Positions 13,138 through 64,000 of a DNA stretch of 64,000 nucleotides are shown here, piece by piece. The position numbers and the translations under genes are program-made. The notes beneath the pieces are model-generated. The model was not told the DNA's origin and searched no databases. It saw only the letters and a program-made list of their open reading frames with translations. This DNA is from an uncultured Pseudanabaenaceae cyanobacterium (GTDB lineage Bacteria > Cyanobacteriota > Cyanobacteriia > PCC-9006 > JAAUQQ01). Numbering within the stretch: position 1 is the first letter of the stretch; each line of letters opens with the position of its first letter. Location of the stretch: the NCBI GenBank assembly GCA_937949725.1, contig CALECT010000017.1, positions 13,243-77,242 on the forward strand. The letters are read 5' to 3'.

Positions 13138-13304
13138 GGTTCTGGCTCGGCGGCGCTTCCGCCGGTTGAGACTGTTTCTTGGGGGTGTGGGATGGGGATT
13201 GAATCAAATGGCTGACGTCTGAAACCTTGCTGGACATGGCATTGACATGTCCCTACGGCAAAATCAAAAGACGGCGGCATCAAATCTGATTCGGACCCCA
13301 TTCA

Positions 13305-45643: not shown

Positions 45644-46138
45644 CTAAGCTAGGACCGATGTCTTTTGGCTATCCATATCTAGAGCCTCTGCGATCGCCAG
45701 CATCAAATCTGTAAACCGCCCATGCCAGATACCAGGCTCCTGCCCGCCCGCTCGCCATTCCAGCACTGGCGAAGATTCCTTGGGGCTATCGCTGCCCTTG
45801 AGGCAAACAACAATGCCGCCTTCTTCATGGAGCTTGAGCACGGGAAAAAGGTGGGGGTCAAAATTCTGACCGCTCTCACACATGCTCTGATAGAGGGCTA
45901 ACGCCTCATCCAGGGAGTAAATACCAGCCAAATAGGAGATTTCTAGGGAGCCCCCATTGCGCCACTCATAAAGCTCGTAGAATTCTTGGGGCAGGGCAAA
46001 GGGAAAGTTGCGAATTTTGCGTTCGATATCCGCACGACTTAATCCCGGATCCAGGCCCTGAAGGTGGAGGGCAAGCCGGGAGCTACCATTTTTGACGCCG
46101 TCTGATATTCGCTCTAGGGTGCTCGAAAGTTCTGACAT
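45644..46138 (-). CDS. SMI1/KNR4 (SUKH-1 superfamily) protein
   Basis: 164 aa. …ADIERKIRNFPFALPQEFYELYEWRNGG…IYSLDEALALYQSM… matches the SMI1/KNR4 pattern (including the W-x-NG motif). Confidence 0.6.
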   Translation of the reverse strand: MSELSSTLERISDGVKNGSSRLALHLQGLDPGLSRADIERKIRNFPFALPQEFYELYEWRNGGSLEISYLAGIYSLDEALALYQSMCESGQNFDPHLFPVLKLHEEGGIVVCLKGSDSPKESSPVLEWRAGGQEPGIWHGRFTDLMLAIAEALDMDSQKTSVLA

Positions 46139-47166: not shown

Positions 47167-47517
47167 ATGGCTTCGGATCAAAATAACTGGTTAGAGATTA
47201 TTGTTGGCCTGATTGCCGGGCATTTCGTTAGCCGCATTGTGTGGGGGCTGCTGATTTGGATTGTCAGCTTGAGCAATCACACTTCGCCAGCTGGTTTCTT
47301 ATTCCTCTATGGCGTGTCAGTGGTTTGTGCCTTTCTGGCTTGGGGCTTGGGCTATGTGGGCGTGTATGCCTTTGCGCCTAAATGCGCCAAGATTTCGGCG
47401 GCATTGTCGGGCATGGTGGGCATTTACGTTGCGCTGGCTCTGTTCTTCCATGGCTTCTTTGGCTGGGGACGCTGGTTTTACCAGAGTGCTAGCCCTTGGC
47501 CTGGTTTTCTGCTGTAA
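47167..47517 (+). CDS. small hypothetical integral membrane protein (3-4 TM helices) encoded on the opposite strand between leuC and leuD
   Basis: 116 aa, very hydrophobic (…IIVGLIAGHFVSRIVWGLLIWIVSL…, …FLFLYGVSVVCAFLAWGLGYVGVYAF…, …GMVGIYVALALFFHGFFGW…). An imperfect hairpin plus T-tract (~47561-47634) follows its stop. Confidence 0.45.
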   Translation: MASDQNNWLEIIVGLIAGHFVSRIVWGLLIWIVSLSNHTSPAGFLFLYGVSVVCAFLAWGLGYVGVYAFAPKCAKISAALSGMVGIYVALALFFHGFFGWGRWFYQSASPWPGFLL

Positions 47518-49073: not shown

Positions 49074-49438
49074 GGTTGCTCCTGGGCGATCGCGCTAGCC
49101 GCTGGGGTTGAGGTCAGCGGGTGAGTTGAGGTCAACGGATGACTGTATTGATCATGGTTGAGCCTGCGAAAGATGTCCAATATATGATTCTGCTTAGATT
49201 AATACTTTAAAAGTATTTATGAGTTGGCTAGAGAAGTCATGGTGGGTGAGTTAGCAGAAGTCTAGAGAATTGGAGAAAGAGAGGCTGTGTTGCTCTGATA
49301 GCCAGAAAATTGACGAAAACCTTAAAATTTTAATGTCGAATATACGCATGGTTTCAAACAGCGCTTGGTGAACCATAGATATTGAGTGTCAGGGCCGATT
49401 GCAATCTACCGCTTCTTGCAATCGAGGACTTTCGTCCT

Positions 49439-52400
49439 ATGGCCGCAGCTTTTTCAACCACTGGAAAGACCTTGGCATTTTTGCCGCTTTTGGGTGTTGC
49501 GTCGCCTTTTGCCCAGGCGGCTGAAGTTCCCTTTCCCAGTCTTTCCCCCTTTCCCAATCAGCCTGACCCCATGGTGAGTGGGTCACAGGTTGGGCAAACT
49601 GCTGCAATCGCATCCCCCATTACACCGCTTGCAGACAGTATGTCTGTGGAAGCCAGCAGTCCTCAGTTTGTCGCCCAAGTACTGCCGACGGATGGCGCGA
49701 CCCAGACCCAAGTTTTGGTGGATGCTGGGGGGGACCAATTTGAGATTAGGGGCGGGGCCCAGGCGGGGGAAAACCTGTTCCACCGTTTTGATCAGCTTGA
49801 TCTAGAGGCGGGGCAGACTGCCAATTTCCAAACCCCTGCGGGACTCGAAGCAGTCTTTAGTCAGGTGGGTGGAGGTCCTTCCAGCATTGATGGCACGCTC
49901 AAAGTGAGCGGCAGCTCAGCGGATCTCTTTTTGCTCAACCCTAATGGCGTTGTCTTTGGTCCCAATGCGCAGCTGGACTTGAATGGTTCTTTCACTGCGA
50001 CTACTGCGGATCGTATCCAGGTTGGTGACCAGTGGGTTGACCTCTTGGAAGAAGGGGTCACCGCTCAAACAGCGGTGGCGGGCTCGGTGGAGGCTTTGGA
50101 GTTTTCTGCGGATGCAGCAGGGGGGGCGATCGCCAACCAAGGCCAGCTCGCTGTCACGGATGGTCAGTCCCTGGGATTGCTTGGCAATGCGGTAGTCAAT
50201 ACGGGCTCGCTGTCAGCCCCTGGCGGAGAGGTCACTGTGTTGTCTGCCAGTGGCGGTCAGCGGGTGAGTCTTGAGGGAGGCCTGCTAAATCTTGAGTTGC
50301 CTGGGGCTCAGGCTGGCTCTAGCCCAAGGCATAGTCTCCCCGCTGTTGTGGCTCAACCCGTGGCTGAAGCCACTGGCCTGAGCTTAAATGCCGACGGGTC
50401 TGTTTCCCTGCAAGCAGGCACTAGTGTTTTATCTGGAACAGTGGATGTGTCTTCCGCTGAAGCCGTTGGTGGCCAGGTCAAAGTCTTGGGGAATGAAGTC
50501 CAGGTCACGAATGCAGTTGTTGATGCATCTGGCGCGGCTGGTGGTGACATTCATGTGGGTGGAGATTACCAGGGACGCGGGGAGATGCTCCGTGCTGTCT
50601 CGACTCGGCTAAATGCTGCCTCGGTTCTACGAGCCGATGGTATAGCTTCAAACTCGGACATTCGTCCCGATGGCGGAGAGGTTATTGTTTGGTCCGATGG
50701 CACTGCTGAGTTTGCTGGAACGGCTACGGCACGTTCATTGGCTCCCGGTGGAGACGGTGGCCTGGTGGAGACCTCTGGCAAACAGCAGTTAAATATTGTC
50801 TCTACAACTAATGTAAATACAGCTTCGGTGGATGGTGCAACGGGGCGGTGGCTGATTGACCCGTTGGACCTGACGGTTGTGAATGGTGGTGGAGTTGGAA
50901 CCATTACTGGTGGCGCAAATGATCCTTTGTCTAGCACGATTGATGCTGCCACTGTAGAAACGGCTCTGGATGGAAATAATGTTCAGCTGCAGGCAACTAA
51001 TTCCATTACGGTGGATGCTCCCATTGATGCCTCCACGAATATCAGCGGTGGCAACCTGGGGCTGGATGCTCCAACGCTGAATTTGAATGAGCGAGTGACT
51101 CTAGTTTCAGGAAGTCAACTTTCTGGGACTGCTAACACGGTCAATGTGGGTGCCAATGGCAGCATCCAGAATGCTGTGGATGCTGCGGTTTCAGGTGGAA
51201 CTGTGAATCTTGCCGCTGCTACCTATCGAGAAGGTAGTGAGATTATTGTTGATAAACAAATCCGCTTACAGGGCCAAGGTACAGCGAGTACAACGATTAG
51301 CGGTGATGCCAATGGTGATGGCAATGCTGCTGGCAATCGCGCAGATAATCATCGCATTCTGCACTTAGATAGCAGTGCAGATGGTACGACTCTATCCGGC
51401 ATAACTTTTAGCGATGGCATCACCAGCTCGGGGGGGGGAGGAATCGAGAATGATGCCGATAATGTCACCATCGAAAATAGTGTTTTTTCCAATAACCGAG
51501 TATTGGGTAGTGGAGAGGATGGGGGAGCAATCCATACCCATGGTGATGGCCTAAGAATTGACAATACCCTCTTTACAATCAACGTGGCAGAAGATGATGG
51601 TGGGGCGATTGATATCGGAAATGGTTCCGTAGAAATCAGCAATAGCATCTTTGCTGATAATGGTGCACTTAATGGTGATGGTGGAGCTATTGATATTGAC
51701 CCGAATGGTTCCTTAACTATCGCTGCTAGTCGTTTTGAATCTAATACTGCAGTGGGCGATGGTGGAGCAATTTATAGTGAGGGGAGGCTGCAAATTGACC
51801 AGACTGAGTTTGATGGAAATTTGGCGGTTGACGAAGGCGGAGGAATTGCTCTCGCTCAATCCTCAGATGCCACTATTGAAGACTCTCGCTTCATTAGCAA
51901 TTCAGCGACTCGTGGGGGAGGGATTGTTGCTCTGGGTAATGCTGCTAGCAGCCTCACGATTACTAATAGTGAATTTGAGCTGAATACAGCGACGACTTCA
52001 GCCGCTGGAGATGGAGGTGCAGTTCAGATTGCGTCTAGTGGTAGCATCACTATCCAAGATTCTGAGTTTCGCAATAATGAAGCCCAAGATGATGGAGGTG
52101 CGATTGAGATTTTTCAGGGTGCTTTGACGCTCCGCGACAATGCTTTTTCAAATAACCGTGCGGCGGATGGTCACGGAGGAGCACTTGATATAGATTCTCC
52201 TGCTAGCGTCATTGCTTCGGGTAATACTTTCACATTCAATGAAGCACCACTGGGAGGAGCGATCGCCAATGATGGCTCCATCAGCATTACCAATGATCTC
52301 TTCCAAAACAATGTTGCCTCAGTTGATGGAGGAGCAATTTACCAGAAAGCCGATGGGATTGCGCAAATCTCAACAGCTGAGTTCACGGGGAATACTGCAG

Positions 52401-55400
52401 GCTCAGAGGGAGGGGCGATTTACCAGCAGGACAGTAGCACCACGACTATTCTAAATTCTGATTTCAGAGATAATCAGGCTGTTGAATTTGGTGGGGCGAT
52501 CGCGAACCAAGGGGATAGCAATAGTCAATTAGATATTACAGGTGGCACCTTTTTACGGAATAGAGTGACTTCTAGCAGTTCAGTCTTGGGAGATGGAGGT
52601 GCCATCTTCATTGGTAGCAGTAGTAGTAATACAATTTCTGGAACGACGTTTTCTGCTAATACGGCAGCACTTGATGGAGGGGCAATCGCCGCAGAAGGAG
52701 CCGCAGAACTCAATATCGACGGAGCATCTTTCGTAAGCAATCAATCCCTCGGAGATAACGGCGGCGGATTATTTCTGATCGGAGATGCCACGCTGAACTT
52801 GAGTAATAGTGTTTTAGCTGGAAACACAGCAGCACAGGCTGGAGGGGGACTTTTTCAGTTTCAGAATGCCAAGTCCACGATTCTCAACACGCGATTTGAG
52901 AATAACCAGGCGGCTACGAGTGGGGGAGCGATCGCATCCCAAATCAATGCCAGCGGTCAGCTCACGATCTCCGGTAGCACTTTTGATAGCAATAGCGCTC
53001 AACAGGATGGCGGTGGTCTCTACTTGGATGCCCCTGCTGGAAGCTTGCTCTCGCTCAGTCAAAGCTTCTTCCTTAATAACAGTGCGCGGTCTGGTGGTGG
53101 CTTATTTAAGACGAATTCTGCTGACTTGACCATTGCGAATACACTTTTTGAACGCAATACCGCTACTGATCATGGAGGCGGCCTGGCAGCTCAATCCAGT
53201 AGTGGCATGATCACTCTGATGGATAGCAATATTGTTCAAAATGTTGCTGGGATAGATGGCGGTGGGATTCGCTTAAATGCTAGCAATCTTTCAGCCAGTA
53301 ACAGTTTGATCCTGACAAATGAAGCAACATTTGGTGGAGGCTTAGAGCTGGGCACTGGCAGCTCTGCCCTGGTGGACAATGTTCTGTTTCAGGGCAATGA
53401 CAGTTCCTCGCATGGTGGGGCAATCTCGATTGATGATTCTTCAATGGCAACGGTTACCAATAGTCGTTTCCTGAACAATCAATCTGATGGCCGAGGCGGT
53501 GCTATCAATACCAATGGTAGTTTGAGTCTTGATACTTCTTTAGTTCAAGCGAATAGTGCTGCGCAGAGAGGGGGAGGCATTGCCTTACAAGGCTCTAGCA
53601 GTGGCGCCGTTACAATTCGCTCTACAACTGTTAATGGTAATACCACTTCTGCCAGTGGTGGTGGGTTGTCCCATGAGGGCAGCCAAACCCTAATGATTGA
53701 GGGTAGTACCTTTAGTAACAATAATGCGACTGCTAATGGGGCTGGTTTAGACCTAAACCCCACGGCCTCTAGTCCTCCAATCCAACTGCAGAACAGCACT
53801 ATTTCAAGTAATATATCGGACTCTAGCGGTGGTGGGCTTTCTCTGGGGGCAAATGCCCCAGTGGACCTGAACAATGTAACGGTTGCAAATAATACTGCTA
53901 CCAGTGGTGGTGGTGGATTGACTAACCTCTTCGGTGGTAGTTTGACTTTGCAAAACACCATTGTGGCTGGAAATACCGCTGCGAGTAATCCAGACATTGC
54001 TGGCGTAATAACGAGCCTGGGCAATAATATTGTTCGAAGTCGAGCGACGAGCACGGGATATGTCAGCTCTGATTTGCCAGATGGCACGGATCCTCTCCTT
54101 TTGTCCTTGGCCAATAATGGTGGCCTGACTGAGACCCATGCACTAAGAGCAAATAGTGTTGCTGTTGATGCTGGTAATGGCAGTGCGACCTTCACAGATC
54201 AACGAGGCCTGACTGCTGTCAACCATCGAGATATTGGTGCTTATGAGCTGGACAATAACTTGACCGCTGTCACCAGTGGATTTGGGCAAACGACCCAGGT
54301 CACCCAAGCGTTTGCTAATCCTATTGAGCTGAGCATCACAGATTCTTTTGGGAGCGCGATCGCGGGTGTGGACGTTGTTGTGTCAGCTCCGACGACTGGA
54401 GCGAGCGCGAGCCTAGGTACATTGCGCACTGATGACAGTGGTGTTGCAACTGCCATAGCAACGGCTAATACAGTGGCTGGGACTTATGCCATCACGTTGG
54501 ATATTGGAAACCCACTCAATTTATATGGAATTTCCCTAACAAACACTCCTGATGTTCCTGACCAAATTGCGATCCTCAATGGCGACAACCAAAGCACCGT
54601 CGTCAATACTGCGTTTGCGAATCCACTTCAGCTTGCGGTGACAGATCAGTTTGGTAATCCGATTCCATTGCAGGCGTTAGGGGTTAGCTTGCCGGGCAGT
54701 GGCGCTAGCGCTACTGCAACCAATGGTACTGATCTTAATGCCATCTTTCTGGTAACTGATAGTGCAGGGCAAGTGATGGTCGATCTCACTGCTAATACGA
54801 TCGCTGGAAACTATGGGGTTGGTCTTACATCTGGAAGCCTAAGCAACAATGCAACGCTAACCAATCTGCCTGATGCCCCTGCACAACTGCTGGTGAACAG
54901 TGGCAATAACCAGAGCACCGTCGTTAATACTGCTTTTGCCAACCCGCTTCAGGCTACAGTTACGGACCAGTTTGGCAATGCGGTTCCTGGAGTGACCGTT
55001 GATTTGAGTTTGCCGGGAGCTGGGGCGAGTTCCAATGCGGGTGAGATCGCCTTAACCACCGATAATTTGGGGCAGGCTACCACTAGCCTCACTGCCAATA
55101 CTATCTCTGGCAGCTATGCCGTTGGCTTAACGGCGGGTGTCCTAGCGAGCAATCTGAGCTTGGAAAATCTGCCCGACGCACCGGCCCAGCTCAATGGCAA
55201 TGCTCAGACCACGGTGGTCAATACAGCCTTTGCTGATCCGCTTCAGGTGACGGTAACGGATCAATTTGGAAATGCGGTGCCGGGGGTGGCAGTGAATGTC
55301 AGTCTGCCGGGAGCTGGAGCAAGTGCCAATGCAGGGACAGTGGCTCTAACAACGGATGCGGCGGGCCAAGCGAACACTGGACTGGTGGCAAATACCACTG

Positions 55401-57529
55401 CTGGAGGCTATGGCCTCAGTTTATCGGCGGGGAGCTTGACGAGTAATGTTCCGCTCACCAATTTACCCGATGCTCCCGCTCATTTAGATGTCCTGGATGG
55501 AGATGGCCAGAGTACAGTTGTAAACACAGCATTTTCTAATCCGCTATTGGTGGCAGTAACGGATCAGTTTGGCAATGTTGTCCCAGGGGCGATCGTGAAC
55601 TTGAGTTTCCCAGGGACTGGGGCGAATGTCAGTGATAGCTCAACGGGTGGGGCTGTCTCGCTGACAACGGATAGCCTGGGGCAGGCCAGCACCAGCTTTG
55701 TAGCGAATACCGTTGCCGGTTCCTATGGCATTGGCTTATCGACGGGTACTGTGAGCAGCGGTATTAGCCTCACCAATTTGCCTGATGCTCCAGCCGAAGT
55801 GAACTTGCTAGGTGGCAATGAGCAAGTGGCACAGGTGAATACCACTTTTGCGGATGAGTTGCGAGTACAAGTTTTGGATCAGTTTGGCAATGTTATTCCA
55901 GGAGTGACCGTAACCTTTACTGCACCTACAGCAGGACCAAGCTCTGCGGCCAGTGCTGAACTTTCTGCGGTGACGGTAACGACTGATGGGGCGGGTGAGG
56001 GACAAGCCCTAGCGACAGCGAATGGACAAGCCGGAGCCTATCAAGTGGAGGCTGAGGTTGGGATTGCAACTGTGACGTTTGAACTGGAAAATGTTGTAGA
56101 TACGCCTTTACCAGAGTTACCAGAGCCAGAGGAGCTACCGCAAATATCTCTGCCTCCCACTCAAGCTCCCGAGTCCCCCACAGGAGCGCCGAGCGCGCCA
56201 GCTCCCCTAAGTTTGGTAAATACGACTGTGGTTGAGGAGATCGACAGTAGCTTCTCCGCTGCCTATACAGACTATTGGGGGACGCCTGCCTCAAGGGGGG
56301 TGACCGTAGCAGAAACCCGAATGGTCCTCGACAATGCGACAGAGGCCCATGGTGTGAACTCAGCGGTGGTCTATGGTTTGTTTGTCCCCCAGGCTCAAGC
56401 TGCGGATGAAGGGTTTGGAGCAACTCAAGTGGCGAGCATGGCGCTGAATCGCCGAGCTCAAACCGAGGAGCAGCGGGATGATGACCAGTTGATGTTGGTG
56501 TTGGTGCCCAGTAAAGGGCCGCTTGTGCAGCAGTTAGTGAGCGTGACCCGTGAGGAACTGTTGCAACAGGCTCGACTCTTTCGCATGGCGGTGTCGGACC
56601 CCTATGACGAATGGAGCTACAAGCCCTTGGCCCAGCAGATGTATAGCTGGATGTTGGAACCTGTGGAGTCAGAGCTAGAGCGCTTAAAACTCGATAACGT
56701 GATGTATGTGATGGATGCAGGGCTGCGGACCTTGCCCCTCGCGGCGATGATGAAAGAGGATGAGTTTGCCATTGAGCGCTATGGAATTTCTCTGATTCCC
56801 AGTGTTGATTTGCTGGAAACAGATTTTGGAGCTTCGGCTCCATCCTCTCAAATTGTGGCAGCGGGGGCGACGGAGTTTGAGCAGTTAAACGATCTCCCTG
56901 CGGTGGGGTTAGAGTTGGATGTTATTTCTTCACAGGCCATCCCGGAGACCACTCAGCAAAATTCAGTGAATGTGTTGTTCAATGAAGACTTTACTCAGGA
57001 GAATCTGCTTCAGGCACAGCAGGAAGGCCCAGCCAATATGCTTCATCTCGCCACCCACGGTGAGTTTAATGCGGGTGATTTAGGGAGTTCCTATCTGCAG
57101 TTTTGGGATGATCAGCTCACGTTGGATGACATTAGTAAACTGGGTTGGGATGAACTAGAGTTGCTCATTCTCAGCGCTTGCCAAACTGCCATTAGCAGCC
57201 CCGAAGCAGAGCTGGGTTTTGCAGGACTTGCAGCAGCCACCGGCGTTGAGAGTACCATTGGTAGCCTGTGGAGCGTTTCTGACATAGGAACGCTGGGCTT
57301 AATGAGTGAGTTTTATGGACAACTTGCTAAGACTCCCCTACGTTTTGAAGCCTTGCGTCAGGCCCAGATGGCGATGTTGCAGGGAGAGACTCGCTTAACT
57401 AATCAGCAGCTACAGACCGAGCGAGGTGACATTGATTTACCAGAGGAGTGGGATTTACCTGAGTCGGCTGACTTCTCCCATCCTTTCTACTGGTCTGGCT
57501 TTACCCTGGTGGGAAATCCTTGGTGGTAG
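49439..57529 (+). CDS. giant (~2700 aa) two-partner-secretion (TpsA-type) exoprotein. It has an N-terminal filamentous-haemagglutinin TPS domain, a beta-helix of PMP-type repeats, six Big_1 Ig-like repeats, a Pro-rich linker and a C-terminal CHAT (caspase-like) protease domain. The start is set to the Met preceding the signal peptide; the ORF track starts at 49382.
   Basis: Signal peptide MAAAFSTTGKTLAFLPLLGVASPFAQA. TPS (haemagg_act) core …QFEIRGGAQAGENLFHRFDQLDLEAGQTANFQ…IDGTLKVSGSSADLFLLNPNGVVFGPNAQLDLNGSFTATTADRI…. From residue ~640 to ~1760 there are dozens of DGGAI…F(S/R/Q)NN(R/Q/S)A repeats. Residues ~1620-2240 hold six ~100-aa units (…QSTVVNTAFANPLQ..VTDQFGN.VPG..V…LTTD..GQA….AN…G.Y…). 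The linker is PLPELPEPEELPQISLPPTQAPESPTGAPSAPAP. The C-terminal CHAT domain has the His motif MLHLATHGEF and the Cys motif LILSACQTA, and ends …FYWSGFTLVGNPWW. Confidence 0.85.
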   Translation: MAAAFSTTGKTLAFLPLLGVASPFAQAAEVPFPSLSPFPNQPDPMVSGSQVGQTAAIASPITPLADSMSVEASSPQFVAQVLPTDGATQTQVLVDAGGDQFEIRGGAQAGENLFHRFDQLDLEAGQTANFQTPAGLEAVFSQVGGGPSSIDGTLKVSGSSADLFLLNPNGVVFGPNAQLDLNGSFTATTADRIQVGDQWVDLLEEGVTAQTAVAGSVEALEFSADAAGGAIANQGQLAVTDGQSLGLLGNAVVNTGSLSAPGGEVTVLSASGGQRVSLEGGLLNLELPGAQAGSSPRHSLPAVVAQPVAEATGLSLNADGSVSLQAGTSVLSGTVDVSSAEAVGGQVKVLGNEVQVTNAVVDASGAAGGDIHVGGDYQGRGEMLRAVSTRLNAASVLRADGIASNSDIRPDGGEVIVWSDGTAEFAGTATARSLAPGGDGGLVETSGKQQLNIVSTTNVNTASVDGATGRWLIDPLDLTVVNGGGVGTITGGANDPLSSTIDAATVETALDGNNVQLQATNSITVDAPIDASTNISGGNLGLDAPTLNLNERVTLVSGSQLSGTANTVNVGANGSIQNAVDAAVSGGTVNLAAATYREGSEIIVDKQIRLQGQGTASTTISGDANGDGNAAGNRADNHRILHLDSSADGTTLSGITFSDGITSSGGGGIENDADNVTIENSVFSNNRVLGSGEDGGAIHTHGDGLRIDNTLFTINVAEDDGGAIDIGNGSVEISNSIFADNGALNGDGGAIDIDPNGSLTIAASRFESNTAVGDGGAIYSEGRLQIDQTEFDGNLAVDEGGGIALAQSSDATIEDSRFISNSATRGGGIVALGNAASSLTITNSEFELNTATTSAAGDGGAVQIASSGSITIQDSEFRNNEAQDDGGAIEIFQGALTLRDNAFSNNRAADGHGGALDIDSPASVIASGNTFTFNEAPLGGAIANDGSISITNDLFQNNVASVDGGAIYQKADGIAQISTAEFTGNTAGSEGGAIYQQDSSTTTILNSDFRDNQAVEFGGAIANQGDSNSQLDITGGTFLRNRVTSSSSVLGDGGAIFIGSSSSNTISGTTFSANTAALDGGAIAAEGAAELNIDGASFVSNQSLGDNGGGLFLIGDATLNLSNSVLAGNTAAQAGGGLFQFQNAKSTILNTRFENNQAATSGGAIASQINASGQLTISGSTFDSNSAQQDGGGLYLDAPAGSLLSLSQSFFLNNSARSGGGLFKTNSADLTIANTLFERNTATDHGGGLAAQSSSGMITLMDSNIVQNVAGIDGGGIRLNASNLSASNSLILTNEATFGGGLELGTGSSALVDNVLFQGNDSSSHGGAISIDDSSMATVTNSRFLNNQSDGRGGAINTNGSLSLDTSLVQANSAAQRGGGIALQGSSSGAVTIRSTTVNGNTTSASGGGLSHEGSQTLMIEGSTFSNNNATANGAGLDLNPTASSPPIQLQNSTISSNISDSSGGGLSLGANAPVDLNNVTVANNTATSGGGGLTNLFGGSLTLQNTIVAGNTAASNPDIAGVITSLGNNIVRSRATSTGYVSSDLPDGTDPLLLSLANNGGLTETHALRANSVAVDAGNGSATFTDQRGLTAVNHRDIGAYELDNNLTAVTSGFGQTTQVTQAFANPIELSITDSFGSAIAGVDVVVSAPTTGASASLGTLRTDDSGVATAIATANTVAGTYAITLDIGNPLNLYGISLTNTPDVPDQIAILNGDNQSTVVNTAFANPLQLAVTDQFGNPIPLQALGVSLPGSGASATATNGTDLNAIFLVTDSAGQVMVDLTANTIAGNYGVGLTSGSLSNNATLTNLPDAPAQLLVNSGNNQSTVVNTAFANPLQATVTDQFGNAVPGVTVDLSLPGAGASSNAGEIALTTDNLGQATTSLTANTISGSYAVGLTAGVLASNLSLENLPDAPAQLNGNAQTTVVNTAFADPLQVTVTDQFGNAVPGVAVNVSLPGAGASANAGTVALTTDAAGQANTGLVANTTAGGYGLSLSAGSLTSNVPLTNLPDAPAHLDVLDGDGQSTVVNTAFSNPLLVAVTDQFGNVVPGAIVNLSFPGTGANVSDSSTGGAVSLTTDSLGQASTSFVANTVAGSYGIGLSTGTVSSGISLTNLPDAPAEVNLLGGNEQVAQVNTTFADELRVQVLDQFGNVIPGVTVTFTAPTAGPSSAASAELSAVTVTTDGAGEGQALATANGQAGAYQVEAEVGIATVTFELENVVDTPLPELPEPEELPQISLPPTQAPESPTGAPSAPAPLSLVNTTVVEEIDSSFSAAYTDYWGTPASRGVTVAETRMVLDNATEAHGVNSAVVYGLFVPQAQAADEGFGATQVASMALNRRAQTEEQRDDDQLMLVLVPSKGPLVQQLVSVTREELLQQARLFRMAVSDPYDEWSYKPLAQQMYSWMLEPVESELERLKLDNVMYVMDAGLRTLPLAAMMKEDEFAIERYGISLIPSVDLLETDFGASAPSSQIVAAGATEFEQLNDLPAVGLELDVISSQAIPETTQQNSVNVLFNEDFTQENLLQAQQEGPANMLHLATHGEFNAGDLGSSYLQFWDDQLTLDDISKLGWDELELLILSACQTAISSPEAELGFAGLAAATGVESTIGSLWSVSDIGTLGLMSEFYGQLAKTPLRFEALRQAQMAMLQGETRLTNQQLQTERGDIDLPEEWDLPESADFSHPFYWSGFTLVGNPWW
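54258..56100 (+). repeat. six tandem ~300-bp coding repeats (Big_1 Ig-like domain units) inside the giant gene
   Basis: Unit starts at ~54258, 54582, 54898, 55192, 55492 and 55807 (spacings 316/294/300/315 nt). Units share long identical nucleotide stretches (for example …GTCGT(C/T)AATAC(T/A)GC(G/T)TTTGC(G/C)AA(T/C)CC…, …ACGGATCAGTTTGG(T/C)AAT…). Confidence 0.8.
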
Positions 57530-57760
57530 GAATCGGGAAGTTGTTGCTCACGAGAGTGAACTTCAATACAACTACGTAGATATTTCAAGACAGAATTGGA
57601 AATACTAGTTTTATAGCAATGGTTTTACTGAGGGGACAATTGGCATCGCTACTTGCCATCCCTTACTGGATAAGTGCTGGAATATCCTAAGTGCTCTAAC
57701 TGGCGCTACAACGTCTGGGTGATTGAGCTCTACCGCTCCAAATCATCAACTGCCTCATCA

Positions 57761-60700
57761 ATGAATAGCCTGATTGGGAACCTTCCCAAGAGCTTATTGC
57801 TTCTGCCTTTACTGGGAGTCACAGCACCGAAGTCTCGGGCAGCGGAACCCTCACTTTTACCTTTAGAGCCTGGAGCGACAACTAAAGCGGGTGATTTGCG
57901 CTTTAGCCACGATATAACCCAGATTAGGCGATCGCCCATTGCTCCAGCCCCTAGTGGGGCTGTGGAAGCTTTTGCTGCCCAGACCTCCGATGGGGATTCG
58001 CCGCTGATCATTGCCCAGGTCATTCCCACCCCTGGGGCGGTCAACACCCAGGTTGAGCTAGATGCCAGCGGAACAGACTTTCAGATCACCGGCGGCACCC
58101 AAACCGGAGAGAATCTCTTCCACCGATTCGATCAGCTGGACCTGAATGCGGGACAGATCGCAGACTTTGAGGTGCATCCTGGCGTTGAGACAATCTTGAG
58201 TGAAATTGGTAGTGGACCGTCGAACATTGATGGATTGCTCAAGGTAAGCGGCGGCAGCGCAGATTTATTTGTAATCAACCCAGCAGGGGTTGTGCTGGGG
58301 CCCAATGCCCAGCTCGACCTGAGTGGCTCATTTGTGGCGACGACAGCGGATCGGCTGGAATTTAGTAATGGTGAGATCGATCTTTTAGATGAGGGCTTTA
58401 CGGAGCAAACGGTGGTCTCTGGATCACTGGATTCTCTGGGCTTTTCTGCTCATGCAGCCGGTGGTGTCATTGTGAATCAAGGGCAGCTAGCCGTTGATGC
58501 TGGCCAGTCGATTGGGCTGCTGGGTCATGCTGTGATCAATACCGGCGAGCTGAAGGCTCCGGGGGGGGAGGTGACAGTGCTGGCGGCGAAGGGTGGGCAG
58601 CAGGTGAGCTTGCAGGGTGAGTTGTTGAACCTGGAGTTGGCTGCCCCTGTCGCGGATGGTTCATCAAATCCTGTGCTCTGGAATAATGCCTCGCAGTCTC
58701 TTGTTGAAGCAACAGGCTTGAGCCAGAACACCGATGGTTCTATTTCCCTAGCGGCGGGGACGGTACGCGTCTCGGGCGATGTAGATGTCTCCTCAGTCAT
58801 TGGGGCAGGCGGCACTGCGACTCTGCTGGGAGATCAGGTCCAGGTCGTGGATGCCGTGGTTGATGCTTCTGGTGCAGAAGGTGGCTTGATTCGGGTGGGA
58901 GGCGACTATCAGGGCCAGGGCGAGTTGCTCCGCGCCAGGGCAACCCAGGTGGATACTGCATCGGTGCTGCGGGCTGATGGTGGTGCTTCAACCCTAGGCA
59001 TTCGTCCCGATGGTGGAGAAGTGATTGTTTGGTCCGATGGCACGACTGAGTTTGCTGGGACAGCGACTGCGCAGTCTCTCGCGCCAGGCGGAGAGGGGGG
59101 CTTAGTTGAGACCTCCGCAAAGCAGCAGTTGGCGATCGCCCCTACAGCAAATGTCAATACAACTTCAGTAGATGGTGCAACGGGCCAGTGGCTGATTGAT
59201 CCGGTGGATCTAACGGTGGTTAATGGCGGTGGAGCAGGCTCCATCGTGGGTGGGACCAACTCGCCTGCTGGAGCGAGCACGATTGATGCAGCCACCATAG
59301 AAGCGGGACTGAATGGTAATAATGTTGTTCTTCAGGCTGATAATTCCATTACCGTCAATGCTCCTATTGATGCTTCTGCCAATCCCAGCGGGGGCGATCT
59401 AGAGCTAGATGCTCCAACGCTTAACTTGAATGAGCGAGTGATGCTAGTCGCCGGGAGTGACCTCTCGGGTACTGCGACGACAGTGAATGTGGGGGCAAAC
59501 GGCGGTGTTCAGAATGGTGTTGATGCTGTCGCAACAGGAGGCACTGTTAACTTGGCTGTGGCGACTTACCGTGAAGGTCAAGAAATTATCATTGACAAAT
59601 CCCTGACGCTCCAAGGTCAAGGAGCTGAAGATACCACCATCAGTGGCGATGCTGATAATAATGGAGATGGAGACCATCGTGTCCTGGAGGCAATGGGGGC
59701 AGGCAACAATATTGTTCTGCAACAGTTGACGATTGCTGACGGAAGAACGGGTGGCATTGGTGCTTCTGGTGGTGGTTTAACGGCGGTGGATGTAAATTTG
59801 ACGATCGCCGATGCTGTATTTCGTAATAACAGAACGGTGGGTAATGGCAGTCAGGATGGTGGTGCGTTTCATCAAGCTGATGCGAGTGTGACAGTTACAC
59901 GATCGCAATTTATTGATAACCAGTCCACCCATGATGGTGGTGCGATTAACCTTCAATCTGGTTCTCTGAACATTAGCGATAGTACTTTTACCCAGAATAT
60001 TGCCCTCTCAGAAGGTGGGGCAATTGATAATGATCGATTTGGTTCGCTAACTATTACCAACAGTAATTTTTCGGATAACACAGCTGCGCTAAGGGGCGGA
60101 GCAATAATGATTGATGCCAATGTGGGTGCGGTCTCTGTCGCTGACAGTAACTTTTCAAATAACAGCTCAGGAAACGGTGGGGCGATCCTTATTGATCGCA
60201 ATGCAGGACCAATCTCTATTACTGGGGGGAATTTTTCAAATAATACAGCAGATGATGGTGGTGCTATTTTTACTGAGTCAGCAGTTGAGATTGCCGGCAG
60301 CAACTTCACAGATAATATTGCTAACGAATCTGGAGGTGCACTCTTACTGACCTCTTCTAGTAGTGGAAATTCGATTCAAGGCAGCAGTTTTATTCGGAAC
60401 CAAGCGCTAGCTCAAAATGGAGGTGCAATTGATGCACAAGTTAATTCATCACTTCAGCTCTCAGCTAACAATTTTACTCAGAATCAGGCTCAAAGAGATG
60501 GGGGGGCAATCCGCAATGATGGAGTAATCACGCTTTCTGATACGACATTAACCAATAACCAGTCTGTAGATCGCCGAGGAGGAGCAATTCATCTCAGCAG
60601 CAATGGAAGACTTACAATTACCAATAGCAACTTTACGGGTAATCAAGCGGGCGATCACGGTGGTGCCTTAGCTTCGTTTAGCACTGATAGCAACTCTCTG

Positions 60701-63700
60701 ACAATTGATAACAGTACCTTCGTAAACAATCATTCAGATCGATTCGGCGGGGGGCTGTATTTAGATAGCACCAATGGAAGGATCGACCTGTTCGACGTCA
60801 CCTTACAAAATAACACTGCTCAAGATGGTGGTGGTCTCTATAAATTAGATGGTGCCACTTTAGAGATAATCGGAAATAGCCGCTTTGAAGACAACATCGC
60901 TACACGGTTTGGTGGTGGTTTAGTAAACGATCGAGTTGATGGCGATGTTAATCTCATAGGCACTCTATTTCGTAATAATGATGCCAGTGATGATGGAGGG
61001 GCGATACACCTGCGCAATGGGAGTCAATTGACAGGGGAAGATCTCACCTTCCTGAACAATACTGCTCAAGATGGCGGTGCTATCGATTTATCAAGTGGAA
61101 CGCAGCTCAGCCTGACGGATAGTATTTTTCAAGCCAACCAAGCAACGACTGGAGGGGCTATTGATGTGGATACTAATTCACAACTCAATCTGACCCGTGG
61201 AAGCTTCCGCAATAATTCATCCCTTACTGGAGGGGCTATCCGCAGTGATAGTGGTCAGATTACTGCGGATAGAACTGAATTTATCAATAACCAAGCTGGG
61301 ATCTCAGGGGGGGCAATTGTTCACGCAGGTAGTGCCATTGCCTCGCTCACTAATGTCACGTTCACGGGCAATACAGCAGATAGATTTGGTGGTGCAATCT
61401 TTAATGAAGGTGATGTTAATAGTCAACTCGAAATTTCAGGAAGTGACTTTTCTCAGAATCAAGTTTTATCTAGCAATTCTGCTTCCGGTGATGGAGGGGC
61501 CATTTCAATTCGTGGAGATGGAGCAACGACGATCTCTGCAACTGATTTTTCTGAGAATCAGGCCACCTTTGATGGTGGCGCGATCGCGAACTCGGCCAAT
61601 TCGGGGCAGCTCACCATTACTGGAAGCCAATTTATTGAAAACCAAGCGGTTGGACCTGGTGGTGCAATTGATAACCAAGGCCGCCTGACCATTGACCAGA
61701 GCAGTTTTACTCGGAATCAAACGACTAGTACAACAACAGGCAATGGTGGGGCGATCGCGAATCGTTTTGCCCAGGCAGAGTTGACAATCGATCAGACGAG
61801 CTTTGTTGATAATCAATCCAGTCGGCAAGGTGGGGGGGTATTCAACTTTCAAGCTGCAGCACTGACGGTCACCAATTCTAGTTTTGAAGGGGGCTCAGCC
61901 ACATTAGGAGGCGGGATTTACAGTGGGTTCTCGCCAGCTGATATCGCTGACAGTCACTTTGAAGGCAACGAAGTTGCTCCAGGAGCCACCACCGGTGATG
62001 GGGCAGCTATCTATAACTTAAGTGGCGATCTGACAGTGGTTGGCTCGACTTTTGTCGACAATCAAGCAACTGATTTTGGTGGCGCCATTCTGAGCTCAGA
62101 GCCAGATGCAACTCTTGTTGTACAAGATAGTGACTTTACCAATAACCGAGCTCGGATTGGTGGAGCTGTGCATCAATTCCAAGGTCAGTTGACCGTTGAA
62201 GATTCTGATTTCTTAAATAACCAAGCTGATCAAGGCGGAGCCCTAAACGTGGTTGGTCTATCTGCAGGTAGCCGGATTCAGAACAGCCTGATTCAGGGCA
62301 ACCAAAGCACAACCACGGGCGGTGGCATCAATCTAGCCAGTGATGCAGAATTGCTGTTGACAGAGGTGGTGCTGGACCAAAACCAAGCCGATCAAAGTGG
62401 CGGTGGTTTAGCAGCACCTTCAGCCCAAGGTTTTTCTGGCAACCTTGAGATTGTGGATAGCAGTTTTACCAACAATCAGGCTGGGCAAAATGGAGGAGGT
62501 CTATTTCAAGAAAATGGGAGCTTGCAGATCCGTGGCTCCCAATTTATCGATAATGTGGCCCAGCGTCGGGGAGGCGGGCTTAACTTAACGGATGTCTCAA
62601 ATGCCGTCATTGAACAGACCTTACTGGAAGAAAATCAGGCTATAAACCTGGCTGGTGGTGGTGCGAGCCTTGAAGGTAATACGAATCTGACCTTGACTCA
62701 ATCTATTTTGCGTCAAAATCAAGCCGTCGGAACGGGGGGAGCCCTGTCCGCTCAGGAGTCTAATAATTTTTCAGGTGATGTCACGGTCAGTGACAGTTCT
62801 TTTGAACAAAACCTCGGCAGCTTTGGGGGGGCGATCCATTTCAATCCCAGTCCTTTAGGCGGAACATTGAGCGTTGAAGGATCTAGCTTTATCGCGAATC
62901 AAGCTCAAAGATCGGCTGGCGCTTTGCAAATATCAGACGGTGCTATTGCCGTGATTGAACGCTCTACATTTTCTGGTAACCAGGCCAATGAAACTGGAGG
63001 GGCTATCCGCAGTGGTGGCAACTTGACCATAGAGCGGAGCACAATCGCGAATAATATTTCTGATGTTGATACAACTGGAGATGGCCGAGGTGGTGGAATT
63101 TTGCAGCAGCAAGGGCAAGTCAGTGTAAGCAACTCAATTGTGGCCCAAAATCAGGTGGGGAGTGATGCGACTGCGATCGCGGCTGACCTATCAGGTAACT
63201 TTCAGGACTTGGGTAATAACCTGATTGGCATCGCAGATGGCGCAACGGGGCTAACTAGCAGCGCCTTACTAGGCAGCACAGCTGCTCCACTTAACCCACT
63301 ATTAGGCCCTCTGGGCAATTACGGCGGCCTAACCCAAACCCTGCCATTGCTGCCCGGTAGCCCTGCGATTGATGCAGCCAATGCCTCTGTTCTGGATCAG
63401 CGAGGCATTGCTCAAGTGAGTGTTGCAACGGATGTTGGTGCCTTTGAATCTCAGGGTTTTGTTGCCCCCCCCTCCTCAGGCACGCCTCAAAGCACTGAGA
63501 TAAATACGGCTTTTGCAGATCCGCTGACGCTAGTTATTTCCAGCACCTTTGGAGAACCTGTGGATGGGGGACAGATCAACTATGCTGCACCAGCCTCAGG
63601 AGCGAGTATCGACTCCCTTCAAAATCCGATTTCTGTCGCAATTACAGGCGGAATCGCTCAACTACCAGTCACTGCTAATGCCCTTGAAGGGCAATATGAT

Positions 63701-64000
63701 GTTGTCGCAACTGCTGCCGGTGTTGCTCCCCTCAATTTTTCGTTAACGAACTTACCCACACCAACGCCTCTACCACTGCCAGAACCCACCCCAGCTCCTA
63801 TTCCTACGCCGGAGCCAACGCCACTAACACCGTCTCCTCCCACGAGGCTAACGCCACTTACCTCACCGCCACCTCCTGAAACACCGTCCATTTCCTTTTT
63901 GGAGCGTCCGATTGATTTCCCTCAAACGAGCCTCAATACCTCTGCGCTGGGGCAGCCGACCCTGGGGCAACCGCCCTTGAGTCTTGTTAATAACGCTGCC
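57761..64000 (+). CDS. second, paralogous giant TPS-domain exoprotein (5' part; the ORF is open to the end of the window, >2080 codons). It has a TPS domain, a PMP-type beta-helix and, in the window, one Big-like unit and a Pro/Thr linker; any downstream domain, including a CHAT domain, lies beyond 64000 and cannot be seen.
   Basis: ATG at 57761 with signal peptide MNSLIGNLPKSLLLLPLLGVTAPKSRAAEP. The TPS block …DFQITGGTQTGENLFHRFDQLDLNAGQIADFE…IDGLLKVSGGSADLFVINPAGVVLGPNAQLDLSGSFVATTADRL… is ~65-70% identical to gene 1 over the first ~650 aa. GGAI/FxxN repeats then run throughout. The end of the window shows …TEINTAFADPLTLVISSTFGEPVDGG… (a Big-like unit) followed by PTPTPLPLPEPTPAPIPTPEPTPLTPSPP. 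It is not in the ORF track because no stop codon falls in the window; 6240 nt is exactly 2080 codons in frame. Confidence 0.8.
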   Translation, partial: MNSLIGNLPKSLLLLPLLGVTAPKSRAAEPSLLPLEPGATTKAGDLRFSHDITQIRRSPIAPAPSGAVEAFAAQTSDGDSPLIIAQVIPTPGAVNTQVELDASGTDFQITGGTQTGENLFHRFDQLDLNAGQIADFEVHPGVETILSEIGSGPSNIDGLLKVSGGSADLFVINPAGVVLGPNAQLDLSGSFVATTADRLEFSNGEIDLLDEGFTEQTVVSGSLDSLGFSAHAAGGVIVNQGQLAVDAGQSIGLLGHAVINTGELKAPGGEVTVLAAKGGQQVSLQGELLNLELAAPVADGSSNPVLWNNASQSLVEATGLSQNTDGSISLAAGTVRVSGDVDVSSVIGAGGTATLLGDQVQVVDAVVDASGAEGGLIRVGGDYQGQGELLRARATQVDTASVLRADGGASTLGIRPDGGEVIVWSDGTTEFAGTATAQSLAPGGEGGLVETSAKQQLAIAPTANVNTTSVDGATGQWLIDPVDLTVVNGGGAGSIVGGTNSPAGASTIDAATIEAGLNGNNVVLQADNSITVNAPIDASANPSGGDLELDAPTLNLNERVMLVAGSDLSGTATTVNVGANGGVQNGVDAVATGGTVNLAVATYREGQEIIIDKSLTLQGQGAEDTTISGDADNNGDGDHRVLEAMGAGNNIVLQQLTIADGRTGGIGASGGGLTAVDVNLTIADAVFRNNRTVGNGSQDGGAFHQADASVTVTRSQFIDNQSTHDGGAINLQSGSLNISDSTFTQNIALSEGGAIDNDRFGSLTITNSNFSDNTAALRGGAIMIDANVGAVSVADSNFSNNSSGNGGAILIDRNAGPISITGGNFSNNTADDGGAIFTESAVEIAGSNFTDNIANESGGALLLTSSSSGNSIQGSSFIRNQALAQNGGAIDAQVNSSLQLSANNFTQNQAQRDGGAIRNDGVITLSDTTLTNNQSVDRRGGAIHLSSNGRLTITNSNFTGNQAGDHGGALASFSTDSNSLTIDNSTFVNNHSDRFGGGLYLDSTNGRIDLFDVTLQNNTAQDGGGLYKLDGATLEIIGNSRFEDNIATRFGGGLVNDRVDGDVNLIGTLFRNNDASDDGGAIHLRNGSQLTGEDLTFLNNTAQDGGAIDLSSGTQLSLTDSIFQANQATTGGAIDVDTNSQLNLTRGSFRNNSSLTGGAIRSDSGQITADRTEFINNQAGISGGAIVHAGSAIASLTNVTFTGNTADRFGGAIFNEGDVNSQLEISGSDFSQNQVLSSNSASGDGGAISIRGDGATTISATDFSENQATFDGGAIANSANSGQLTITGSQFIENQAVGPGGAIDNQGRLTIDQSSFTRNQTTSTTTGNGGAIANRFAQAELTIDQTSFVDNQSSRQGGGVFNFQAAALTVTNSSFEGGSATLGGGIYSGFSPADIADSHFEGNEVAPGATTGDGAAIYNLSGDLTVVGSTFVDNQATDFGGAILSSEPDATLVVQDSDFTNNRARIGGAVHQFQGQLTVEDSDFLNNQADQGGALNVVGLSAGSRIQNSLIQGNQSTTTGGGINLASDAELLLTEVVLDQNQADQSGGGLAAPSAQGFSGNLEIVDSSFTNNQAGQNGGGLFQENGSLQIRGSQFIDNVAQRRGGGLNLTDVSNAVIEQTLLEENQAINLAGGGASLEGNTNLTLTQSILRQNQAVGTGGALSAQESNNFSGDVTVSDSSFEQNLGSFGGAIHFNPSPLGGTLSVEGSSFIANQAQRSAGALQISDGAIAVIERSTFSGNQANETGGAIRSGGNLTIERSTIANNISDVDTTGDGRGGGILQQQGQVSVSNSIVAQNQVGSDATAIAADLSGNFQDLGNNLIGIADGATGLTSSALLGSTAAPLNPLLGPLGNYGGLTQTLPLLPGSPAIDAANASVLDQRGIAQVSVATDVGAFESQGFVAPPSSGTPQSTEINTAFADPLTLVISSTFGEPVDGGQINYAAPASGASIDSLQNPISVAITGGIAQLPVTANALEGQYDVVATAAGVAPLNFSLTNLPTPTPLPLPEPTPAPIPTPEPTPLTPSPPTRLTPLTSPPPPETPSISFLERPIDFPQTSLNTSALGQPTLGQPPLSLVNNAA

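Follow-up and report, generated by a model that had tools for sequence, protein, structure and literature searches.

Tandem TPS-CHAT exoproteins in a conserved cyanobacterial cluster with DUF928 and CHASE2-GGDEF genes: a candidate envelope signalling device

What would a caspase-like protease do at the end of a giant exported fibre? The question is raised by the last part of a 64,000-nucleotide stretch of DNA from an uncultured Pseudanabaenaceae cyanobacterium (contig CALECT010000017.1, forward strand, positions 13,243 to 77,242; hereafter the window), where two paralogous genes, gene 1 and gene 2, lie in tandem on the same strand. Their products carry a two-partner secretion (TPS) domain near one end and a CHAT cysteine protease domain at the other. 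We are confident that the locus encodes a predicted-active exported TPS-CHAT protease in a conserved cluster with a DUF928 gene and a CHASE2-GGDEF gene, a context more in keeping with a signalling device of the envelope than with a toxin. That the fibre lies on the cell surface and that its protease, together with DUF928, provides the CHASE2 sensor with its input is a reading that we hold possible, with rather more doubt than confidence.

A first-pass annotation of the window had described two giant TpsA-type genes with a beta-helix of the Chlamydia polymorphic membrane protein (PMP) type, and this was confirmed by the open reading frames (ORFs) and by Pfam and NCBIfam searches (Table 1). The frame of gene 1 is open from 49382 to 57529, with its start at the ATG at 49439, and its product is identical to P0002 of the public protein database; gene 2 starts at the ATG at 57761 and continues for 2080 codons without a stop up to the window end. 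Both products have hydrophobic N-termini, and by eye the predicted signal peptide ends between AQA and AE in gene 1 and between SRA and AE in gene 2. For the TPS domain, PF05860 gave 119.7 bits with gene 1 and 110.4 bits with gene 2 (curated cut-off 33.5), and TIGR01901 gave 67.6 and 60.5 bits (curated cut-off 29.1). The NPNG motif lies inside this domain at residue 167 of gene 1, and gene 2 carries the variant NPAG at residue 173.

The beta-helix is made of GGA[ILV]/FxxN repeats; counted over the whole protein, there are 33 GG[AG][ILV] and 27 FxxN motifs in gene 1 and 37 and 35, respectively, in gene 2. Chlam_PMP (PF02415) matched gene 1 with E 1.4e-25, and the additional NCBIfam families matched by gene 1 were POMP_repeat (TIGR01376), adhes_NPXG and choice-of-anchor-Q. 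A choice-of-anchor-Q module closes the beta-helix in both proteins (residues 1551-1604 of gene 1, NF041518 E 1.3e-15; residues 1845-1898 of gene 2). Beyond it in gene 1, five N[LT]PD.P boundaries (residues 1702, 1809, 1910, 2008 and 2113) mark off six immunoglobulin (Ig)-like units. Each of the domains previously named for gene 1 (TPS, PMP, Big_1 and CHAT) was matched by a hidden Markov model, and the six Ig units are visible. In gene 2 no Pfam match to Big_1 reached E 0.01 and one Ig-like unit was seen by eye; the Pro/Thr-rich linker after it is longer than the Pro-rich linker of gene 1.

The window ends inside gene 2, and the region beyond base 64000 was read from the near-identical ENA contig L001. 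The first-pass annotation had named a CHAT domain for gene 1 alone. Its TPS domain, PMP repeats, Ig-like unit and linker are as described there, but the full-length protein (P0001, 2529 aa) also ends in a CHAT domain (E 9.6e-60, 202.9 bits) and is not different in kind. The same extension revealed neither a TpsB gene nor a small cytoplasmic immunity gene, which had been thought of as possible followers of gene 2.

There are no internal stops in either gene. The tandem pair is also found in L001, which is an independent assembly (3 of 6240 nucleotides different from the window), and in two syntenic relatives (L002 and L168); with the frames uninterrupted, the genes are therefore neither an assembly artefact nor pseudogenes, two of the outcomes that had been named as fatal to the earlier description. 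DNA tandem repeats were absent from the pair in Tandem Repeats Finder output except for one 36-bp array. Since gene 1 has no DNA repeat array, its Ig units must differ from one another in their DNA, and a collapse in the assembly is unlikely. Promoter and terminator scans gave results at or below shuffle expectation and were uninformative on operon structure.

The CHAT domain of gene 1 scored 207.5 bits with PF12770 (cut-off 24). Its candidate catalytic residues lie in the motifs HLATHG (H2536/H2540) and LSACQT (C2581), and the catalytic histidine and cysteine are invariant across 12 diverse homologues (alignment A1). When PDB sequences were searched with a profile built from the CHAT alignment, nothing was matched, and only the fold search gave matches. 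An AlphaFold model of the last 300 aa (pLDDT, the predicted local distance difference test score, 71.8) matched Csx29 of Craspase (E 3e-7), SAVED-CHAT, the periplasmic CHAT domain of DdvA (E 4.7e-6), caspases and a C11 protease, so that the structural check suggested earlier for the gene 1 C-terminus did return caspase and CHAT folds.

Each of these giant proteins contains exactly one cysteine, the catalytic one: C2581 in the 2696 aa of gene 1 and C2414 in the 2529 aa of gene 2. Among 93 homologues (mean length 1899 aa) the median cysteine count was 1, and 52 have exactly one. We read this pattern as a sign that a protein which passes unfolded through the oxidising periplasm may avoid cysteine, while the nucleophile is kept by selection. 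The single-cysteine signature and the retained nucleophile thus point to an exported protease that is predicted to be active.

The best structural matches, with HetF of Anabaena (the founder of the CHAT family) listed beside Csx29 (a TPR-CHAT protein) and SAVED-CHAT, share the fold and the dyad with our model. Those proteins are cytoplasmic, regulated by RNA or cyclic oligonucleotides, and without export signals. Other bacterial CHAT proteases (Craspase, SAVED-CHAT, the DdvA regulon) have been placed in anti-phage defence, and the locus could be read as a further module of that sort: besides the fold matches to Csx29, SAVED-CHAT and DdvA, PADLOC gave a weak BovA match on the CHAT part (E 3e-10). 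That match spans the shared CHAT fold only, and neither DUF928 nor CHASE2-GGDEF was matched by PADLOC. The proteins have a Sec signal and a TPS domain and are hence not cytoplasmic, and no defence island surrounds the locus, which is set among housekeeping genes of conserved synteny (leuCD, hisS). We therefore regard a role in defence as very improbable.

We then have to ask what accompanies the pair. In L001, gene 2 is directly followed on the same strand by genes for a DUF928 protein (272 aa) and a CHASE2-GGDEF membrane protein, and a LysR regulator comes next. The CHASE2 gene probably starts at the ATG at 11080 of L001, which adds an RRKR segment and a first transmembrane helix before the sensor domain. 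An identical DUF928 protein (P0122) is recorded on the window's own 82,212-bp contig, alongside P0002 and P0121, and the DUF928 and CHASE2 genes therefore come after the window in the same genome. The order TPS-CHAT, TPS-CHAT, DUF928, CHASE2-GGDEF, LysR is kept in L002 and L168 within the leuCD/hisS context; synteny in related cyanobacteria, which had been put forward as a check, thus supports the cluster.

Across cyanobacterial orders, exported CHAT proteins are repeatedly found together with DUF928 and CHASE2. In the closest single-copy relatives (L003, L008 and L009), and in L007, a TPS-CHAT gene is followed by DUF928 and a CHASE2 gene, the latter being CHASE2-GGDEF in L003. A Scytonema locus has the order TpsB, TPS-CHAT, CHASE2-Ser/Thr kinase, DUF928, and in two Nostoc loci (L040, 6206-19291; L053, 6200-19227) a tandem TPS-CHAT pair adjoins CHASE2 and DUF928. 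In a tree of CHAT domains the Nostoc pairs and the window pairs arise separately, i.e. by independent duplication, and the recurrence of pairs might mean that the proteases work as heterodimers. Altogether, DUF928 and CHASE2 were found in 15 of 86 CHAT-anchored loci, always both together; the 15 come from Leptolyngbya-like, Nostoc, Scytonema and Laspinema genomes.

The same association can be viewed from the side of DUF928. Metagenomes were scanned with a three-sequence DUF928 alignment, giving a sample biased toward one DUF928 subgroup, and we kept the 27 loci that had 3 kb or more of sequence to either side. CHASE2 was directly adjacent in 17 of the 27, and a CHAT protein lay within 7 kb in seven. 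The CHAT partner at DUF928 loci is often a TPR-CHAT protein of 850-990 aa, and all ten of the TPR-CHAT proteins examined start with a strongly hydrophobic signal or anchor segment. At L100 and L105, a TpsA without CHAT, a TpsB, a signal-peptide TPR-CHAT and DUF928 are encoded by separate neighbouring genes.

The CHASE2 proteins linked to DUF928 (n = 45) vary in their output domains: 25 have GGDEF (19 of them with EAL), eight have a nucleotide cyclase, one each has a Ser/Thr kinase, a histidine kinase or TIR, and several have none. Because the sensor is constant and the outputs are variable, the comparison places DUF928 on the input side of the CHASE2 sensor. Cases without a recognised output domain, and the one with TIR, are among L161 (2256-3935), L162 (1164-2735), L165 (886-2376) and members of alignment A4. 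We do not claim a CHASE2-CHAT fusion: Pfam CHAT was present in two of the 45 CHASE2 ORFs, and the one looked at again, an N-terminal CHAT-like match in L166 (478-2319), is weak (E 1.4e-5) and was not detected by our own CHAT profile.

Members of the DUF928 family have a signal peptide and two invariant cysteines. Near the N-terminus they carry the motif [DE]RG....T.GG[TR]RG...C, the looser form of which, G-G-x-R-G..C, occurred in 75 of 85 distinct DUF928 ORFs and in 23 of 1024 control ORFs. The structural model shows an FN3/Ig-like beta-sandwich core followed by helices (core pLDDT 83-96), with the motif in a low-confidence segment. Sequence and model agree with a periplasmic protein whose N-terminal tail is flexible and conserved. 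In the DUF928 protein of L007 (7387-8274), an N-terminal motif R-W-x-P-K..G..GTLSGGRRG is present twice in tandem.

Searches of the open-access literature found one mention of DUF928, in a survey of WD40 proteins, where a single CHASE2-DUF928 adjacency in Nostoc punctiforme was taken as species-specific. In the same literature we found no paper joining CHAT with two-partner secretion, hemagglutinin or CHASE2 and none describing a triad of TPS-CHAT, DUF928 and CHASE2. The earlier statement that TPS-exported CHAT proteases have no described function agrees with this, as we found no open-access paper on TPS-linked CHAT proteases. The proteins themselves are far from rare. At E <= 1e-10 the TPS-plus-CHAT sequences fell into 223 database clusters; both domains are present in most of the 120 listed, and among the matches listed every named TPS-CHAT protein is cyanobacterial, labelled either 'CHAT domain-containing protein' or 'filamentous hemagglutinin family protein'. 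A scan of one genome per species gave at least 564 TPS-CHAT loci, and tandem arrays are common, with for instance three copies in Oscillatoria princeps. We rate the TPS-CHAT genes as an already annotated but unstudied family, whose payload and partner set are unprecedented for a TpsA exoprotein.

Could the protease simply degrade what it meets outside the cell? A surface-displayed or released enzyme of this kind, serving nutrition, matrix remodelling or interactions with other organisms, would have no relation to the neighbouring genes. The intact catalytic dyad and the export-competent protein are compatible with it; secreted clan-CD proteases exist, and the C11 protease among the fold matches is in keeping with them. 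Enzymes of the CHAT and caspase-like type are, however, typically specific, regulated processing proteases, and a degradative function leaves the recurrent DUF928-CHASE2 linkage unexplained. We consider it improbable.

We propose, tentatively and with doubts that we set out below, that exported CHAT, DUF928 and CHASE2 form an undescribed envelope-spanning protease relay in which DUF928 is the long-sought proteinaceous input of CHASE2. It is likewise no more than possible, in our judgement, that in such a relay a TpsA fibre or a periplasmic TPR-CHAT turns an event outside the cell into cleavage or capture of DUF928, leading to cyclic di-GMP (c-di-GMP), cyclic AMP (cAMP) or kinase outputs. At the window's locus, the TPS domain, beta-helix and Ig fibre would be exported to the cell surface by an unlinked TpsB, and the Pro-rich linker would thread the outer membrane. 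The CHAT domain would then work on the periplasmic side, in the same compartment as DUF928 and the CHASE2 domain, because the signal-peptide TPR-CHAT versions must act there and, by analogy, because FhaB and CdiA keep their C-terminal parts in the periplasm. There it would act on or with DUF928, possibly cleaving at the disordered G-G-[S/T/R]-R-G..C motif, of which the conserved Arg-Gly in the DUF928 tail is our guess at the candidate cleavage site. The CHASE2 domain would read the state of DUF928 and set diguanylate-cyclase activity, so that events at the fibre could act through c-di-GMP on surface behaviour, i.e. motility or biofilm. With their divergent beta-helices, the two paralogues would provide two different surface specificities for one relay.

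There are precedents for such a scheme. In DdvA, a CHAT domain with a His-Cys dyad lies outside the cytoplasm, at the end where a transmembrane signalling pathway receives its input. DdvA spans the inner membrane once and has TPR repeats and a cytoplasmic zinc anti-sigma domain, and it controls a sigma factor of the extracytoplasmic function (ECF) class; its periplasmic TPR-CHAT part is proposed to start signalling by proteolysis, which is a proposal only (PMC11506125). Here, in contrast to DdvA, a TpsA fibre carries the CHAT domain and the neighbouring transducer is a protein of its own, the CHASE2 sensor, and no Pfam or NCBIfam match to a TPR or anti-sigma domain was found in gene 1 or gene 2. 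Dgc2 (LBDG_02920), a CHASE2-PAS-GGDEF protein of Leptolyngbya boryana, resembles the sensor encoded downstream of gene 2 in its CHASE2-GGDEF coupling and its Leptolyngbya-type host; the latter sensor is without PAS. Dgc2 controls motility and biofilm, both of which it suppresses, and its ligand is unknown (PMC10581220). In Sinorhizobium meliloti, the CHASE2 adenylate cyclases CyaD1, CyaD2 and CyaK, with the outer-membrane protein NsrA, sense a protein signal via an outer-membrane beta-barrel (as cited in PMC13001267). The logic of that relay is the same as that of a relay from TpsB and TpsA to CHASE2; its output is cAMP, and no CHAT, DUF928 or TPS is reported for it. In Trichodesmium erythraeum, CHASE2 is fused to a metacaspase (Peptidase_C14) in one protein (PMC2853523), which is another link between CHASE2 and a caspase-like enzyme, but there the protease is a fused partner domain.

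Several observations weigh against the relay. About 70 of the 86 TPS-CHAT loci have neither DUF928 nor CHASE2 within 10 kb, and 20 of the 27 DUF928 loci have no CHAT nearby; since most loci of either kind lack the other, the link is facultative or operates in trans. A PMP-type TPS-CHAT pair in the filamentous cyanobacterium LEGE 11480 (L167, 1-7649) has no DUF928 or CHASE2 in the 10 kb downstream, and the cluster is thus not universal even among fairly close relatives. Retention of CHAT in the periplasm is argued from analogy and from the signal-peptide TPR-CHAT versions alone, the cleavage-site idea rests solely on a conserved Arg-Gly in a low-confidence region, and all steps after export are ones that we infer. 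Adjacency could also reflect co-regulation of surface functions with no direct relay between them. Finally, no gene for a TpsB (POTRA_2 plus ShlB barrel) was found in the 49 kb upstream or the approximately 10 kb downstream of the pair. Relatives (L005/6, L013, L026, L060, L062, L100 and L105) do encode TpsB within their loci. A TpsB profile search found thousands of ShlB-type proteins in cyanobacteria, with none on contigs of this organism or its syntenic relatives among the 120 matches listed. As no POTRA/ShlB ORF is present in the window or the approximately 10 kb downstream, the partner TpsB must therefore be unlinked to the pair.

A self-processing adhesin is another reading. On this account the proteins are surface adhesins or matrix proteins, and CHAT is either a protease that matures or releases them in cis or a periplasmic prodomain by which secretion is controlled, as in FhaB; DUF928 and CHASE2-GGDEF would be merely co-located regulators of surface behaviour, with no direct contact between protease and sensor. 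FhaB (FHA) of Bordetella and the other type Vb TpsA adhesins share with our pair a signal peptide, a TPS domain with NPNG, a long beta-helical passenger and a Pro-rich segment before the C-terminal region. Here, by contrast, Chlamydia-PMP-type repeats and Big_1 units make up the passenger in place of Fil_haemagg repeats, a CHAT cysteine protease forms the C-terminus and TpsB is not encoded nearby. The FhaB prodomain is retained in the periplasm and then degraded. The Pmp autotransporters of Chlamydia are similar in having a beta-helix of GGA[ILV]/FxxN repeats, but they are type Va proteins with a C-terminal beta-barrel, whereas ours have N-terminal TPS export and a CHAT C-terminus, and no match to an autotransporter beta-barrel domain was found in either gene.

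The TpsA architecture with its beta-helix and Ig units, and the Pro-rich linker immediately before CHAT, are what an adhesin of this type would have. Most TPS-CHAT loci are without DUF928 and CHASE2, so CHAT must have a role for which they are not required in cis, and DdvA has itself been proposed to self-cleave (PMC11506125). What the adhesin account does not explain is why fibre-less signal-peptide TPR-CHAT proteins stand beside DUF928-CHASE2, or why the sensor outputs vary while DUF928-CHASE2 stays constant. Nor is it obvious why a protease acting purely in cis should be conserved at 96% between paralogues with diverged fibres. We judge it rather unlikely.

That last point comes from a comparison of the two paralogues. 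They are 55-79% identical over the first 600 aa, and 20-40% identical across the beta-helix and Ig centre, in line with the earlier statement that the pair has a divergent beta-helix; diversifying selection acting on the beta-helix is plausible. Identity rises to 67-70% over most of the last 420 aa and to 96% over the final 135 aa. In this final block the third codon positions are just 68% identical. The conservation of the block therefore reflects purifying selection and not a recent copy, and recent gene conversion as the source of the matching C-termini was rejected. For the gene-conversion question, positions 57125-57526 of the window were compared with the gene ends in L001 and L002. The last 405 nucleotides of gene 2 are 84% identical to the gene 1 orthologue in L002 versus 75% to gene 2's own orthologue; because the 3' end of gene 2 is nearer to the gene 1 orthologue, there are hints of an older partial conversion between the tandem paralogues, which is possible on this sequence comparison.

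The strong conservation of the C-terminus bears directly on the CDI-like or polymorphic toxin reading, in which the fibre would deliver CHAT to neighbouring cells, with envelope or cytoplasmic targets, and DUF928 would serve as a periplasmic immunity protein or inhibitor. The resemblance to CdiA is real: there is a TPS export domain, a long fibre and a C-terminal enzyme, paralogues often occur in tandem arrays, a gene for a small exported protein is present downstream and a SUKH/SMI1 gene lies 3.3 kb upstream. The analogy with CdiA or an exotoxin drawn in the first-pass annotation was nevertheless not supported. We found no Fil_haemagg (FHA-1/FHA-2) repeats, no V[ED]NN motif or PT-VENN pretoxin match, no adjacent cdiB (TpsB) and no cytoplasmic immunity gene such as cdiI, and the C-terminus is the most conserved part of the proteins, not a polymorphic one. 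There is a single DUF928 for two CHAT genes, and DUF928 pairs mainly with CHASE2, mostly without a CHAT gene nearby. The SUKH gene stands on the other strand, past leuCD, in conserved housekeeping synteny. A toxin of this kind has a low probability in our view, and the envelope signalling reading remains the one that we prefer.

Table 1. Positions of the features of the TPS-CHAT pair and of the genes that follow it. Coordinates are those of the window except where L001 is given.
Feature	Position	Strand	Basis or remark
Gene 1, TPS-CHAT exoprotein	49439..57529	+	2696 aa; ORF and translation, Pfam/NCBIfam domains
Gene 1 predicted Sec signal peptide, MAAAFSTTGKTLAFLPLLGVASPFAQA followed by AE	49439..49519	+	read by eye
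Gene 1 TPS secretion domain, aa 79-306	49673..50356	+	PF05860 E 2.6e-34; TIGR01901 E 6.8e-19
Gene 1 conserved post-TPS stem, aa 307-620	50357..51298	+	55-79% identity between paralogues
Gene 1 PMP-repeat (GGA[ILV]/FxxN) beta-helix, divergent part	51299..54250	+	20-40% identity to gene 2
Gene 1 six Ig-like (Big_1) units, ~aa 1610-2215	54266..56083	+	PF02369 E 1.1e-21; five stretches pass
Gene 1 Pro-rich linker, aa 2221-2256, from Ig units to CHAT region	56099..56206	+	sequence
Gene 1 CHAT caspase-like protease region, aa 2279-2696	56273..57526	+	PF12770, aa 2396-2693, E 3.9e-61
Gene 1 candidate catalytic His2540	57056-57058	+	codon verified
Gene 1 candidate catalytic Cys2581	57179-57181	+	codon verified
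Spacer between paralogues, 231 bp	57530..57760		no terminator-like site; scan no better than chance
Gene 2, paralogous TPS-CHAT exoprotein	57761..64000	+	first 2080 of 2529 codons; frame open to window end
Gene 2 TPS secretion domain, aa 85-329	58013..58747	+	PF05860 E 1.8e-31
Gene 2 PMP-repeat beta-helix	59708..63454	+	Chlam_PMP E 3.6e-61; NF041518 E 8e-17
Gene 2 Pro/Thr-rich linker, ~aa 1998-2042	63752..63886	+	sequence; one Ig-like unit precedes
DUF928 (PF06051)	L001 10211-11029	same strand as CHAT genes	outside the 64-kb window
CHASE2-GGDEF (PF05226)	L001 11080/11188-12903	same strand as CHAT genes	outside the 64-kb window

On its upstream side, gene 1 is preceded by housekeeping genes: leuC, leuD, a PfkB kinase, CYTH, hisS, a LuxR-type regulator and an AMIN protein. 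The SUKH-1/SMI1_KNR4 gene lies at 45644-46138 on the minus strand (E 1.2e-5), and it is conserved at the same position in L002 and L168. The SUKH family often serves as toxin immunity; here the gene probably has no connection with the TPS-CHAT pair. A small ORF of 116 aa with no Pfam match stands at 47167-47517 (+), flanked by leuD and leuC and on the strand opposite to theirs, counterparts of which were called in L002 (123 aa) and L168 (116 aa). Further from the pair, the window contains signalling genes of the FHA/PP2C type at 16016-18277 (-), 38311-39084 (+) and 28805-30232 (-), a set made up of a class-A penicillin-binding protein that has FHA at its N-terminus, a protein with a double zinc ribbon and FHA, and a SpoIIE-type phosphatase.

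In size and in number of copies, TPS-CHAT genes rank with the foremost genes of filamentous cyanobacteria. The sensor domain CHASE2 is widespread in bacteria, and its ligands are still called unknown (PMC10581220); in the one case that is partly understood, a protein signal passes by way of an outer-membrane barrel (PMC13001267). The recurrent pairing of CHASE2 with DUF928, together with the repeated linkage to exported CHAT, offers concrete, testable candidate partners for the CHASE2 input, and strains of Leptolyngbya and Nostoc that are open to genetics are available. Should the relay not be real, the pair would still be unusual adhesins in which a single cysteine marks an exported, predicted-active protease. 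If it is, it would be a new route by which information from the surface passes inward in a diderm cell, and the second case after DdvA of a caspase-like protease signalling outside the cytoplasm.

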